Below are positions 29,794 to 35,913 of a stretch of 64,000 bases of DNA, one piece after another. Made by a program: the position numbers and the translations under genes. A model generated the notes under the pieces. That model was not told where the DNA came from. It ran no database searches and was given only the letters and a program-made list of their open reading frames with translations. Each line of letters starts with the position of its first letter. Positions within the stretch are counted from its first letter, which is position 1. The stretch comes from a virus (lineage: Duplodnaviria; Caudoviricetes), in the IMG/VR virus record IMGVR_UViG_3300031555_001441, positions 80,270 through 144,269 of that record. One strand, written 5' to 3'.

Positions 29794-29834
29794 AAAAAAT
29801 AGATCGGCTGTTATGGGAGTTGGAGCCGATCTAT
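29794..29834 (-). terminator. intrinsic terminator closing the ncRNA island
   Basis: ATAGATCGGCT..AGCCGATCTAT stem followed by a T tract on the minus strand. Confidence 0.75.
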
Positions 29835-29838
29835 CTAT

Positions 29839-30034
29839 GATGCCCTCGAGAATCTTTTCATCCGGGCCAGATGAATTCCAAAATAATTAAAGAAGTTATG
29901 CAGAGATTCTCGTGCTGCTGTGGAAATTGTAGGTGCCGTCCTACTGCGTGCTTCTCAAGATGCTTTGACTCAGAAGCCGTGAGGTATTTAAAGGAGACCA
30001 CAAAGAACACACTTTTTCGGTCTTAGGGAGCATC
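29839..30034 (-). ncRNA. putative structured ncRNA, ~195 nt
   Basis: Closing stem GATGC(TC)CCT/AGGGCATC with internal hairpins; no ORF. Confidence 0.4.
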
Positions 30035-30095
30035 TTGTGCCCTGACGTATGGAAAACCACGCGTATTCAAAATGAGTGGACAACGACGTTGTTGA

Positions 30096-30168
30096 TCTGA
30101 GTGAAGGGATTTGAACCCCCGACCTGATGGTCCCAAACCACCCGCTCTACCAACTGAGCTACACCCAG
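30096..30168 (-). tRNA. tRNA-Pro(UGG)
   Basis: Complete cloverleaf, loop TT-TGG-GA, T loop TTCAAAT; CCA not encoded. Confidence 0.92.
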
Positions 30169-30196
30169 ATACTGGGAAGGATTATTCTTCCCATTC

Positions 30197-30269
30197 TGGA
30201 AGGAACGGTAGGAGTCGAACCTACTTAAGTCAGTAGCGCTACTTCTGACTCTTGTCCGAAATCATCCCC
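30197..30269 (-). ncRNA. aberrant tRNA-like RNA
   Basis: Acceptor GGGGATG/CGTTCCT plus CCA; T arm GTAGG-TTCGACT-CCTAC; no proper D arm; 11-nt anticodon loop. Confidence 0.65.
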
Positions 30270-30286
30270 ATATGAATGTTGGCATC

Positions 30287-30802
30287 TTATTTTGCATACA
30301 GCGCATTGTTGACAATAGTGTATCCATGTTTATATAACGATTCATCGCTATTGATTGTATCTCCTGTAAGGAGTTCATCGAGCAGCTCCCGAATCAATCT
30401 GACTTCATTCTTGATGATTATGTCAGGAGCGTCAAGAACAATGAGTTTTGATAATCTTATATTTCTGTTATATATGTTTGCGAGCAGCCGAGCTACATAT
30501 GCAAATGAAATCATATCGTCATCATATATTCGGAGGACATCGTCTACGGGAATTTCATTGATACATACATCAGAGTAGTTATGCTCTTTTCTGAATTCGG
30601 CTACTTTCCGGTCAGCAAGCTCTCTGAAATCTTCATCGTGAGAAAAATATTCAAACACTGTATACTCCAGCTTTTCATCAGGCGTAAGCATTTTGTAATC
30701 AGTTTGTGTAAGCAGCATCTCAGCACAGTCTCTTTCGGTCATGTCCATATCAGATAGTGCGGACAGCGGAATAATCGATACAGGAAATTTGATGTTTTTC
30801 AT
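30287..30802 (-). CDS. hypothetical protein inserted in the RNA island
   Basis: 171-aa ORF with AGGAG RBS. Confidence 0.65.
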   Translation of the reverse strand: MKNIKFPVSIIPLSALSDMDMTERDCAEMLLTQTDYKMLTPDEKLEYTVFEYFSHDEDFRELADRKVAEFRKEHNYSDVCINEIPVDDVLRIYDDDMISFAYVARLLANIYNRNIRLSKLIVLDAPDIIIKNEVRLIRELLDELLTGDTINSDESLYKHGYTIVNNALYAK

Positions 30803-30839
30803 TATTTGATACTATCTCCTTATTACTATGAATATGCAG

Positions 30840-30911
30840 AGCTGGTGAATGGAGTCGAACCATCAATCCGTGCATTACAAGTGCACTGCTCTACCATTGA
30901 GCCACACCAGC
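30840..30911 (-). tRNA. tRNA-Thr(UGU)
   Basis: Cloverleaf; GTGCA-CT-TGT-AA-TGCAC. Confidence 0.92.
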
Positions 30912-30919
30912 AAATTAAA

Positions 30920-31059
30920 TTGAACCTAAATGACGAATGCGGTTATTCCAGCCTCAACACACGACTATTGTGCGCACTCACGGTGTACTATAGCGGTTTC
31001 TGTGGAGTCTGCTTGCAATCAGACGTTATCCACCATTTGCTCACTTCATTTAGATTCAA
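30920..31059 (-). ncRNA. family A ~140-nt RNA, copy 1
   Basis: 14-bp closing stem with a G-U pair on the minus strand; core shared with 33004-33138. Confidence 0.6.
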
Positions 31060-31390
31060 AGTGTAAGGACTAGCGAATCACCTTACTGTACCTATCTCCG
31101 CTTTCAAGGCTTTCGATTGCGCTCTATTAGGTAGAATTACACAACACTTTTAATTCAGATTCCTGACTTGACTCAGCATGAGTATCTGAACACCTAATAG
31201 AGAAATCAATTTAATAAAAGTTACCGTCACTTTCGCTCGGATTGATTACCGCGTTTCCTGCCTCATGGCAGTCACTCTTGTTCTGTCTTTGCAGTTGAGT
31301 TACGTCTCCCTATCATGATTCCGTTTGATCTGTCGGAGCAGCACGGAGATCGGTTAGCCTTGCTATTATTTCAAGCCAACAGTAACTTTT
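31060..31390 (-). ncRNA. ~330-nt structured RNA sharing motifs with the 1150-nt RNA
   Basis: Closed domains at 31216-31390 and 31122-31202; shared 16-mer and CGAAAGCC..CGGAGA..GGTAC. Confidence 0.55.
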
Positions 31391-31391
31391 T

Positions 31392-31467
31392 TGGCGCACC
31401 CTGTAGGACTCGAACCTACGACCCATTGATTAACAGTCAATTGCTCTACCGACTGAGCTAAGGATGC
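31392..31467 (-). tRNA. tRNA-Asn(GUU)
   Basis: Cloverleaf; CT-GTT-AA loop; CCA encoded. Confidence 0.93.
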
Positions 31468-31585
31468 ATGAATTTGAAAGTTCAGTCCGCCTTTCAGCCA
31501 TTCCAGTAAGGGCGATACACAGCTTACAAGTCTCTGGCATCTGATACCTACGAGAGGTAACCATAACACGCGTTGTTATGTATTA

Positions 31586-33668: not shown

Positions 33669-33774
33669 TGAGAGCCTAGACCTATATCACTCTCCGGTCC
33701 TCTGCAAGCTCTTTGAGGACTTTATCCGTTTCTGCGCGCATCCGACGAATACACTCGGACATTTCTAAATTGAA

Positions 33775-33895
33775 TTGTAGGCTGTTCATCAAACTCCATT
33801 TAACATGTACTGCTGCTCTATCCGATTTACGCTCAGGAACCTCCTGCATCTCGTCAAATACCGCTTACGATTCGGAAGCTTCGTAGCACCTACAA
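33775..33895 (-). ncRNA. family B ~120-nt RNA, copy 2
   Basis: TTGTAGG/CCTACAA stem with the same handles. Confidence 0.6.
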
Positions 33896-34059
33896 CTCTT
33901 GTTGTTTCTTCCCTGTGTCGTAGAGAACACACGCCTTTCACTGTAGTAGAAAAAGTAATTACTGCACGCTCGATTCTACCGTACTGACATAACGACCAAA
34001 AATGTTATGGAAATTTATTGGATCTCAGTAACTTGGAACGTCATTACCGAGAAGCGGTC

Positions 34060-34134
34060 TGGCTGAGGTAGCTGGATTTGAACCAGCGATGCAGGAGTCA
34101 AAGTCCTGTGTCTTGACCACTTGACTATACCCCA
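34060..34134 (-). tRNA. tRNA-Gln(UUG)
   Basis: Cloverleaf; CAGGA-CT-TTG-AC-TCCTG; CCA encoded. Confidence 0.93.
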
Positions 34135-34153
34135 ATATTTTGCAAGATTATAA

Positions 34154-34231
34154 TGGTTGTGAAGGTTGGACTTGAACCAACTTAATAACGTGCCTACATG
34201 TTATCGGCGTTGTGATTTCAATCACTTCAAG
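34154..34231 (-). ncRNA. aberrant tRNA-like RNA
   Basis: T arm GTTGG-TTCAAGT-CCAAC and CCA end; partial acceptor; non-standard D and anticodon arms. Confidence 0.55.
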
Positions 34232-34344
34232 AAGCAGTTTCTTACCTTACTCGAGATATTCTCAGTCTTACTTCTAACGTTGTCAGCGGAACATGCACCC
34301 GCCCGACTCGACCCTTCGCCTTCTTCACTATATCTTTTTAAACT

Positions 34345-34413
34345 AGGATTGTGTGAGAGTCGAACTCACTCCTGCAGTTTCTGAGGCTGCTGTGCGCCGT
34401 ACACCATCGCTCC
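34345..34413 (-). pseudogene. degenerate tRNA (loop CT-CAG-AA)
   Basis: T arm GTGAG-TTCGACT-CTCAC intact; acceptor stem has 3 mismatches; no CCA. Confidence 0.55.
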
Positions 34414-34484
34414 ATATAGATTGTACTTTCTTACTTACGTAGAAGAAACTTTTAAGAAGACGGATACATACTAAAAGCTTAATA

Positions 34485-35634
34485 TGGAGTTGGCAGTCTT
34501 TCCCACTGACTGCCTGAGACTCTATCTCTCATCACAGTCCTCTGTCACATTACTGTGCTCTTCGGCTTTTACCTCCACTAACGGAGGCGAGAGTCTCCCT
34601 GACATCCTTAGTACTTGCACAATCTGGCTTCACTTAATAGGAACATCGCTACGTTTCAGGTATAAGTACCAACAGCTTCGCCTCCCTCCGCAGGGACTTC
34701 CTCTGGACTCAGACCAGACTTTCCACCATTGAATACATACGATGCTATTCCATGTCGCATCCTATTTAAGTATATCGGAGTTTCACCGACACCTTACGAG
34801 AATCCGAACCCACCAATTCTCTGAGTACTACTGGCTCGCTTTAGTAATGCGATGCCTGACTGTTCCGAAGTTCGTCCGCAACTGTCTGAGTTTAACGGGC
34901 TATTTCTCCTTACTGAATCCTGAGACTCGGATTGATTACCGAGGAGAGATTCAACGGCTCTTTTTGTGCCGAAGTCTCTATTAACCTTCGGCTAAATTCC
35001 TCTCTTCGAAAATCTCTGCGCAGATAAGAGGAATACTTTAGGATGTAGTGGCAACCTCACTTTACTATAATCCACTACGTTACTCGAAGTACCTCTCCGA
35101 ATTTTTCGGCTTTCGCTAATCCAGTCTTACAACCTCGTACCTATTTACGGAGATACGCTGACCGAAGGTTTTAGTTAGAATAAGTGTAGCACCAACCTCA
35201 TTTGTGAAACTTGCTACCTACGGAGATACTTTTGCGCATTTCACGCATCCATCACCGTTCTTAGATCACTATCGTGTCTAAAGGTTGTTGATCTTAACTG
35301 GTACCTGAACCCACGAGTACCTTGGCGTTGTTGCACGCGTGTCCATCATTCAAGATATAACGGGCGACGTCCTTCCCGATCACGTATCATCGCTTTGATC
35401 AGAAGCGACTTCGAGATCAGCACCACTATTCATCTGAGGTAGATTTAATTCATCAACCACTTATCTGACTCTACGACCTTGTACTTCGGTGGTCATGCAC
35501 CTTCAGATCTCACTTTATTTCGAGCCTGTGAGCAGGACTTGGTGTGGAGAGCCTTTCTGTAGATACTTTCATGTGACTTTTTCACCTTTAGAGCGTACTC
35601 GCGAATACGACATCTTCAAGCTTCTCTAACTCCA
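34485..35634 (-). ncRNA. 1150-nt large structured ncRNA, GOLLD/ROOL-like candidate
   Basis: Begins 1 nt after the tRNA-Leu CCA; TGGAGTT/AACTCCA terminal stem; many hairpins; no credible minus-strand ORF. Confidence 0.6.
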
Positions 35635-35635
35635 C

Positions 35636-35719
35636 TGGTGCACCTGGAGAGACTTGAACTCTCACCCATCTTGGACTGGACCCTAAAACCAGCGCGTCTG
35701 CCATTTCCGCCACAGATGC
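35636..35719 (-). tRNA. tRNA-Leu(UAG)
   Basis: Class II cloverleaf; TT-TAG-GG loop; CCA encoded. Confidence 0.9.
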
Positions 35720-35725
35720 ATGTAT

Positions 35726-35836
35726 TATATCAGGCTGTTCATCCCACTCCATTTACCACTGCTGCTGCGTCCATTTACTCCGTTCCAGAAAGCTATTAAG
35801 GCGATCTGCGGTATAGGCTTCGTGGCACCTGATATA
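35726..35836 (-). ncRNA. family B ~110-nt RNA, copy 3
   Basis: TATATCAGG/CCTGATATA stem with the same handles. Confidence 0.6.
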
Positions 35837-35845
35837 TTTGATTTT

Positions 35846-35913
35846 TACAAGTATATTATAAGCCCTACTGATTATGTCAGTATTATATATTTATTAAATT
35901 TTTATAAATTTTA
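35846..35913 (-). promoter_or_regulatory. 68-bp class C repeat, copy 2, at the head of the RNA island
   Basis: Near-identical to 5655-5722. Confidence 0.75.

Follow-up and report, generated by a model that had tools for sequence, protein, structure and literature searches.

An RNA-dense island in a large uncultured phage, with at least two apparently undescribed structured RNA families

What occupies six kilobases of a phage genome in which long open reading frames (ORFs) have become scarce? The question is raised by positions 29794-35913 of the stretch of DNA analysed here (hereafter the window), which makes up the final 64 kb of an IMG/VR virus record of 144 kb, estimated to be 96% complete. 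An initial annotation, made from the letters alone, had described this interval as an island of tRNAs interleaved with structured RNAs, with only three credible ORFs, six canonical tRNAs and five aberrant tRNA-like RNAs, and had seen in it a candidate for an undescribed system. These counts are right: three ORFs of at least 100 amino acids lie inside the interval (30287-30802, 31721-32101 and 32112-32474), none lies between 32475 and 36160, ARAGORN and Rfam agree on the six tRNAs, and the five tRNA-like units all have acceptor and T arms (if of uneven quality). All the listed parts of the island are on the minus strand, which also holds nearly all long ORFs, and the G+C content of the island is 0.42-0.47, against 0.36-0.39 in the flanks.

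Our answer is that the interval is a genuine locus of stable RNAs, densely packed with them, and that at least two of its structured RNA families, called here Family B and Family C, are apparently undescribed. Besides its six tRNAs, the island contains five scaffolds derived from tRNAs, Family B in three copies, Family C in one, and several units with paired ends, two of them with a hairpin of the ROOL type. This inventory, its strand, the conservation and covariation of the two families and their genomic association are what we observe; from them we infer how the island RNAs may be transcribed, processed, kept stable and used. The explanation that we favour, with a confidence somewhat better than even, is a stable-RNA island in which transcripts started at several promoters are processed at tRNA units and release RNAs with locked ends that act in trans. 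That all these RNAs form one coordinated system is a broader claim, which we put forward as a hypothesis.

Two covarying RNA families and their company

Family B is an RNA of about 110-130 nt with constant ends and a variable middle, first spotted by reading the minus strand of the island, where it occurs three times: copy 1 at 35723-35840 (core 35733-35830; 94.9 bits with the covariance model R1, covarying helices P1 and P2), copy 2 at 33770-33901 (82.6 bits) and a divergent copy 3 at 31578-31709 (49 bits), in which part of the 3' strand is missing. The constant handles, NGGUGCYACGAAGC ... GURGUAAAUGGAGUnnGAUGAACAGCCN, enclose the variable interior. Scanning with a pattern of the two ends gave 21 further stretches in large phage contigs of several metagenomes, and a pattern of the 3' block gave 16 stretches in contigs of metagenome-assembled genomes (MAGs), from gut Clostridia and others (sheep, goat, rabbit, mouse, human); the copies that R1 detects number 41, spread over 31 loci, and include divergent second and third ones. 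P1 consists of about five variable flank pairs plus NGGU/GCCN, and P2 of GCYAC/GURGU; there follow a GAA bulge, a G-C/C-G step and then an arm of 49-152 nt which varies in both length and sequence, whereas the 3' strand AAAUGGAGUnnGANGAACA is nearly invariant and unpaired. In the alignment of the 41 sequences, 92% of cells are paired, versus 24-44% when the partners are slid, and double changes occur at eight pairs. The Y:R pair of P2, which was not imposed by the search patterns, is U-A in 20 copies, C-G in 19 and A-U in one, with no mismatch. All three copies of the window are found by R1 and have P1, P2 and the AAAUGGAGUnnGANGAACA strand, which in copy 3 is incomplete. Judged by this comparative evidence, Family B is a conserved covarying RNA on the tRNA strand.

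The element also keeps constant company. In every Family B locus all tRNAs share its strand; 34 of the 41 copies have a tRNA within 2 kb, and ten have one within 15 nt, as if Family B had taken a tRNA slot (between tRNA-Pro and tRNA-Arg in locus L035, between tRNA-Asp and tRNA-Glu in L039, right after tRNA-Thr in L040). All three copies of the 144-kb genome sit in the island, and only one of 101 genomes of the bacterial family to which one carrier MAG belongs has Family B, which fits a phage-borne element.

Family C was reached from the 1.15-kb ORF-free stretch that follows tRNA-Leu, by BLAST matches of its 3' end to loci L010, L028, L029 and L024. It is an RNA of about 300 nt at 34487-34794, whose 3' domain (34487-34615) scores 122.5 bits with the model R2, the window sequence having itself belonged to the seed alignment of that model. 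A metagenome scan added L050, L053, L055 and L059, these four being the true members among 14 matches and the rest due to chance, and stricter patterns returned from viral contigs only loci that were already known. The eight members, of about 270-325 nt, share a CGGUnnAAnUCCG hairpin, the blocks GGAUGCnnnnUGGAAUAG, UUAAGGA and GGUARAAGCC, a GNRA hairpin, the block UGAUGAGAGA and a terminal hairpin with the loop CAGUGGGAAAG. Base pairing in the 3' domain, assessed over four helices, holds in 98.9% of cells, compared with 32-44% for slid partners, and compensatory double changes are seen at 19 of the 22 pairs tested; R2 finds exactly one copy per locus in all eight loci, and the segment 34487-34615 has the four covarying helices together with the blocks. 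Wherever a locus includes tRNAs, Family C lies within the tRNA array and on the tRNA strand, in L059 beginning directly after a tRNA. By the same kind of comparison it is a conserved covarying RNA on the tRNA strand.

Beside Family C, a second conserved ORF-free module of about 500-650 nt was noticed in other phages (L010:2410-3090, L029:1511-2093 on the minus strand, and L024:7840-8630) and is absent from the window. It comes after Family C in L010 and L029 and upstream of it in L024, and among its contents are blocks such as GACCGUUGGAAGUGGUUGCAAAC and a tRNA-like piece whose T loop is GGUUCGAAUCC.

Both families appear, from these searches, to be new. Family B matches no family of Rfam 15, even at E = 10 with a 191-nt query, and no INPHARED phage matches a Family B member; Family C has no match in Rfam 15 or in cultured phages, which contain nothing resembling the island except tRNAs. 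The signature strings of both families occur in this context in no paper of the literature searched. When the whole of Rfam 15 (including GOLLD, OLE, raiA, transfer-messenger RNA (tmRNA), RNase P RNA, signal recognition particle RNA, 6S RNA, group I and II introns, riboswitches and self-cleaving ribozymes) was run at gathering scores, or at E up to 10 with lax filters, it gave only tRNAs and chance-level matches; beyond these no model, GOLLD and ROOL included, matches either the window or the whole phage genome. A catalogue of 10,006 candidate structured RNAs from IMG/VR, with tRNA-like candidates and RNAs of up to 151 nt among them, uses the same source data (phage contigs of IMG/VR) and the same kind of evidence (covariation) (PMC10690425); its text names no motif like Family B or C, and the two may be among its unnamed candidates.

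The niche itself is already known, and the idea of an undescribed system was overstated in this respect: GOLLD, ROOL and the species 1 and 2 RNAs of phage T4 occupy it, and only the particular families appear to be new. ROOL and GOLLD are large ornate RNAs of phages and prophages, often found beside tRNA islands, and form RNA-only nanocages (PMC5737381, PMC12286853). The island RNAs share their niche, that is, phage tRNA islands and the tRNA strand, but Family B (about 120 nt) and Family C (about 300 nt) are much smaller, with other conserved sequences and helices. The function of ROOL and GOLLD is still unknown even after their structures were solved by cryo-electron microscopy. The island indicates that in animal-gut phages the same niche also holds smaller, well-defined covarying RNA families, beside each other and beside ROOL.

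Family B precedes Family C by 70-75 nt in L010/L028, L029 and L053; in L050 a weak Family B copy comes after Family C, and L024 and the window each have both families in one island. In L046, a full ROOL RNA (354 bits; 2950-3517, minus strand) follows a Family B copy at a distance of about 70 nt. Two further tRNA islands with Family B also hold, respectively, a ROOL RNA (L047:1-455, minus strand, 116 bits) and a RAGATH-33 RNA (L019:7215-7340, 123.6 bits). The window has no ROOL of its own: the model RF03087 (574 positions, gathering score 99.1 bits), which as a positive control scores 354 bits on L046, has no match at E = 10 in the window, in the 1.2-kb segment or in the whole genome. What it has is a hairpin. 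The conserved hairpin loop of the ROOL consensus is GUAAUCAAUCC, and the island has the loop GGUAAUCAAUCC in two hairpins, both of the form CGG-UAAUCAAU-CCG (34926-34941 and 31236-31251), the loop of the first being identical to that of ROOL; GGTAATCAATCC is found twice on the minus strand (31239-31250 and 34929-34940), with 0.31 expected. One shared hairpin motif is insufficient for membership of the ROOL family.

That Families B and C occur together, beside tRNAs and beside ROOL, fits the suite of phage RNAs that had been proposed. The recurring order, Family B and then a large RNA, suggests partners to test and could help to explain RNAs of the ROOL type. Family B, being short and abundant in metagenomes, with an invariant core and a freely variable arm, should lend itself readily to cleavage and binding assays in vitro and to structural analysis. 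One may go further and imagine Families B and C, together with the ROOL of sister phages, as components of a single RNA machine of the phage. In it, Family B would serve as a small adaptor RNA or as a ribozyme and would engage the ribosome or tRNAs through its invariant junction, in which a Shine-Dalgarno-like GGAG and an AUG are found; the larger partner would be exchangeable between phages (Family C here, ROOL elsewhere) and would assemble into an RNA-only particle capturing or protecting tRNAs or ribosomes during infection. This is a speculation to which we attach only slight belief.

tRNA-like units, candidate promoters and proposed processing

The six tRNAs are the sole tRNAs of the 144-kb genome: tRNA-Leu(UAG) at 35636-35719, with an encoded CCA, tRNA-Gln(UUG) at 34060-34134, tRNA-Gly(UCC) at 32925-32998, tRNA-Asn(GUU) at 31392-31467, tRNA-Thr(UGU) at 30839-30911 and tRNA-Pro(UGG) at 30094-30169. 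They score 46-74 bits for RF00005 (gathering score 29 bits) and ARAGORN calls six out of six. The tRNA-like units between them are less regular. The cleanest, at 33139-33266 (z = -2.4), combines acceptor, D and T arms that are all perfect with an encoded ACCA, and two hairpins replace the anticodon arm. The unit at 34154-34320, recognised by reading the sequence and by ARAGORN at a low threshold, has a T arm, a 6-bp acceptor stem, an encoded ACCA and an insert of about 85-100 nt; that at 33530-33668 has a 7-bp acceptor stem, a D-like arm, a 6-bp T arm and an insert of about 85 nt. A small unit at 30197-30269 consists of an acceptor stem, a single central hairpin, a T arm and UCCA, the D arm being absent, and the degenerate unit at 34345-34413, with a poor acceptor stem, is borderline for RF00005 (29.6 bits, gathering score 29) and receives no ARAGORN call. 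CCA is encoded in four of the six tRNAs and in most of the scaffolds. None of the five units has a complete cloverleaf (a 7-nt anticodon loop on a 5-bp stem), the anticodon arm being replaced or degenerate, and ARAGORN reports such units only if introns are allowed or the threshold is lowered. In related islands, tRNA-like genes with inserts of 20-80 nt make up 26 of 327 ARAGORN calls (introns allowed).

These scaffolds resemble several known RNAs without being any of them. Like the tRNA-like domain of tmRNA, they keep an acceptor stem, a T arm and often CCA around a large insert, but no tmRNA is called in the island by ARAGORN defaults or by Rfam. ARAGORN can parse 33139-33266 as a tRNA(CUA) with a 36-nt intron, like a tRNA with an intron, but at 36-100 nt the inserts of the island fall short of the size of a group I intron, and no such intron is found by Rfam. 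We rejected an intron-bearing suppressor tRNA at this place: the anticodon stem is weak, the genome gives no sign of stop-codon recoding, and a suppressor is unnecessary since the 144-kb genome uses the standard code. Separately, tRNAs with stop anticodons (CUA, UCA, UUA) are present in related phages (L013:1609-1702, L019:9589-9662, L030:7308-7384, L010:3330-3481, and L030:7268-7421 and 9919-10063), several of them with inserts of 69-77 nt in the anticodon loop, a hint of stop-codon recoding or of regulated suppressors in sister lineages.

The species 1 and 2 stable RNAs of phage T4 are co-transcribed and co-processed with tRNAs. Species 1 has a T-arm-like 3' end, as have the island scaffolds, and the two genes (rnaC, rnaD) are annotated directly after the last tRNA (tRNA-Arg) of the T4 cluster (record X03016); T4 has two such RNAs, however, against roughly a dozen non-tRNA units in the island. 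As relatives of Family B they were discarded, R1 with filters off giving at best 9 bits (E = 0.28) in the T4 tRNA region. The insert-bearing tRNA scaffolds, which recur in related phages, extend this 50-year-old puzzle.

How might such an array be expressed? The island had been described as bounded by a promoter and a terminator. The intrinsic terminator at 29795-29836 is strong, with a 13-bp stem followed by U6 (z = -3.6). The promoter-like site upstream of the first RNA unit (35853-35880; CTGACA, 16 nt, TAATAT) comes from a generic sigma-70 consensus scan whose sites are no commoner than in shuffled sequence. The box TATAATACR, though, is enriched in the window (nine observed versus 2.0 expected), and four of these boxes are in the island on the minus strand. 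One TATAATACA box (35721-35729) lies 1 nt upstream of tRNA-Leu, overlapping the 3' flank of Family B copy 1; another, with its leader, precedes tRNA-Gly (32999-33089) and is a paralogue of 30912-31001, which precedes tRNA-Thr; two TATAATAC boxes flank Family B copy 3. The idea of a single polycistronic transcript across the island is probably to be abandoned, because of these four internal boxes, one of them only 1 nt from tRNA-Leu.

The closing stems of three units bear on strand. As had been claimed, they are biased by G-U pairs towards the minus strand, with 3-4 such pairs there versus 0-1 on the plus strand, and this makes them 4-9 kcal/mol stabler on the minus strand. They are the stem of a 232-nt unit at 32507-32738 (about 15 bp, -24.6 versus -15.2 kcal/mol, 3 G-U pairs; no homologue found), that of a 175-nt unit with paired ends at 31216-31390, which starts 1 nt after tRNA-Asn and carries the second ROOL-type hairpin, and the 12-bp stem of a 140-nt unit at 30920-31059.

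We would thus picture the island as follows. Promoters of the sigma-70 type, with TATAATACR boxes, would give short multi-unit transcripts ending at the terminator. Host tRNA-processing enzymes would cut them at the tRNA and tRNA-like units, RNase P at the 5' ends and endonucleases and 3' exonucleases at the 3' ends. The intervening RNAs would persist through ends locked in long terminal helices, which would block exonucleases, and once released they would act in trans during infection, like ROOL and GOLLD. The most plausible targets would be translation or the tRNA machinery; alternatively, they might build assemblies of RNA alone or of RNA and protein. The functional core or binding site of Family B would be its conserved junction, to which the 20-nt unpaired strand belongs, and the variable interior would be a peripheral arm.

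Several observations weigh against this picture. In Firmicutes (Bacillus subtilis), an encoded CCA inhibits RNase Z; with CCA encoded in four of the six tRNAs, punctuation on the 3' side would need other nucleases. Seven of the 41 Family B copies have no tRNA in the locus examined, so that the link with tRNAs is not obligatory. For five segments (34795-35635, 33267-33529, 32478-32924, 31468-31578 and 29841-30093) a search of some 0.5 Mb of related tRNA islands gave no homologue, and these could be non-functional. Finally, compared with dinucleotide shuffles, sliding windows have a mean minimum-free-energy z-score of -0.1 (minus strand) or -0.5 (plus strand). With averages about zero, thermodynamic stability is no proof of structure; only comparative evidence is, and it is available for some segments only. 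The claim that the inter-tRNA RNAs are structured is therefore upheld by covariation for Families B and C, while most other segments have neither homologues nor an excess of folding energy.

Competing explanations

The last two points lead to the alternative that fares best. Once the tRNAs and the two RNA families are set aside, what is left of the island might be mostly debris, that is, decaying tRNA copies, former insertions and spacers left by a rapid turnover of the array, the tRNA-like units being pseudogenes. The segments without homologues may indeed be lineage-specific RNAs or debris, and, besides the z-scores near zero, one would expect from debris a clearly degenerate tRNA such as 34345-34413, a degenerate Family B copy such as copy 3 with its 49 bits, and the internal paralogy, which points to duplication. 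We nevertheless consider this explanation, though possible, unlikely. Phage genomes are compact, and 3-4 kb of junk would be unusual; nor would one expect debris to keep strand-specific G-U pairing in its terminal stems, perfect acceptor, D and T arms with CCA at 33139-33266, a ROOL-type hairpin in two places, or insert-bearing tRNA-like genes that recur in related islands at the frequency given above.

For Family B itself, a cis-acting role has to be weighed. It could be a 5' leader protecting against a 5' exonuclease, or an antitermination element for a structured array, like the put RNAs of phage HK022 or an rRNA leader. In 11 of the 41 copies a tRNA is present downstream and none upstream within the locus examined, so that Family B may head the array; several copies begin a few nucleotides after a TATAAT box, and copy 1 of the window is the first unit after the promoter-like site. 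Yet the copies of L035 and L039 cannot be 5' terminal, since each has a tRNA on either side at a distance of 3-12 nt; some copies have no tRNA nearby, and in the window the TATAATACA box between copy 1 and tRNA-Leu means that the two perhaps do not share a transcript. A cis-acting Family B thus seems to us doubtful.

The 1.15-kb ORF-free stretch might be read in another way, as one giant RNA (34485-35634) comparable to GOLLD or ROOL. It starts 1 nt after tRNA-Leu, its ends can pair over 7 bp, it contains a ROOL-type hairpin, and about 1 kb of ORF-free sequence follows Family B in other phages as well. The pairing of the ends is weak, however (-11.2 kcal/mol), no better on the minus strand and unconserved in the other Family C loci. 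Moreover, the 3' 300 nt are Family C, which is solitary elsewhere (directly after the tRNA in L059, separated by AT-rich spacers in L010 and L029), and the 5' 840 nt (34795-35635), with a folding z of -1.4 to -2.2 between 34900 and 35424, have no homologue. Since Family C stands alone elsewhere, the stretch is more likely a string of modules than one molecule, and we regard the giant RNA as improbable. In the 840-nt segment we also noticed GUAUCUCCGUA twice and GAGGUUG three times (35146-35229 and 35089-35099, minus strand), suggesting tandem paralogous hairpin modules or alternative pairings.

Family B might also be a new self-cleaving ribozyme, or an aptamer for a small molecule, its unpaired junction being the active site or pocket and the variable arm peripheral. 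The architecture is typical of such RNAs, with two covarying helices, a variable arm of 49-152 nt and some 30 nearly invariant junction nucleotides. RAGATH-33, present in a related island, is one of a class of motifs defined by lying near twister and hammerhead ribozymes, and the copies in L019 and L020 precede an ORF with its own ribosome-binding site. This idea must be set against the failure of any Rfam 15 ribozyme or riboswitch to match (the 191-nt query at E = 10, as above). Most copies, moreover, are followed by tRNAs or other RNAs rather than by genes that a riboswitch could control, and cleavage beside tRNAs is already supplied by RNase P. We think a ribozyme or aptamer decidedly improbable. 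A guide RNA was also considered and rejected, because nowhere in the phage genome do the interiors have an antisense match of more than 12 nt.

That the ORF-poor stretch is made of many small protein genes and not of RNAs is most improbable, and a small-protein gene was rejected for Family B in particular: minus-strand ORFs of 30-69 codons exist, one of them starting from the AUG of Family B copy 2 behind GGAG (GGAG and AUG lie in the Family B core), but the AUG frames of the 41 copies run for anything from 3 to 63 codons with no common peptide beyond MNS(L), some entering tRNAs, in six copies the AUG, or the core around it, is absent, base pairing and not codons explains the conservation, and the G+C content is raised, as in tRNAs. 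The ORF just mentioned (MNSLQFNLEMSECIRRMRAETDKVLKELAEDRRVI; 33680-33787, minus strand, 35 codons) is the sole one, among the window copies, whose frame gives a helix-like peptide.

Neighbouring genes and provenance

A 45-nt hairpin GUAAGG...CCUUAC with a conserved loop (31053-31101) is common to the window, L019 and L020, in the latter two likewise after tRNA-Asn.

Of the three ORFs, that at 32112-32474 (120 amino acids) has relatives with 51-59% identity in other large phage contigs, in or near tRNA islands; in L005-L009 (10001-10345) the gene is embedded in the tRNA array. It matches no Pfam, PHROG or NCBIfam family and has no usable Atlas match; its product is a conserved tRNA-island protein. 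The loci found through it (L002-L009) have tRNA islands whose spacers are dissimilar to those of the window and in which Families B and C are absent. The neighbouring ORF at 31721-32101 (126 amino acids) belongs to no known family. In the 171-amino-acid ORF at 30287-30802, a stretch of 40 residues resembles the clamp helices of the RNA polymerase beta' subunit. More precisely, residues 96-146 resemble the clamp-helix (coiled-coil) region (E = 3e-6 to 1e-3 with NCBIfam rpoC models, E = 0.04 with Pfam RNA_pol_Rpb1_1), and the product could conceivably mimic a binding site for sigma or NusG.

As to its provenance, the island DNA is present in metagenomes of animal feces; among sequencing runs of RNA, none was found to contain it. 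Four DNA runs from feces gave only low-depth contigs, all identical to the window, with zero microdiversity. Searches with a flanking 317-amino-acid protein and with the DNA ligase revealed no close relative of the phage; related contigs in MAGs suggest that the host of this large uncultured phage is to be sought among gut Clostridia. Outside the window, a second stretch of the 144-kb genome (its positions 24001-36000), which has no tRNAs, shows a low long-ORF coverage of 0.52, against 0.8-0.97 in most other bins.

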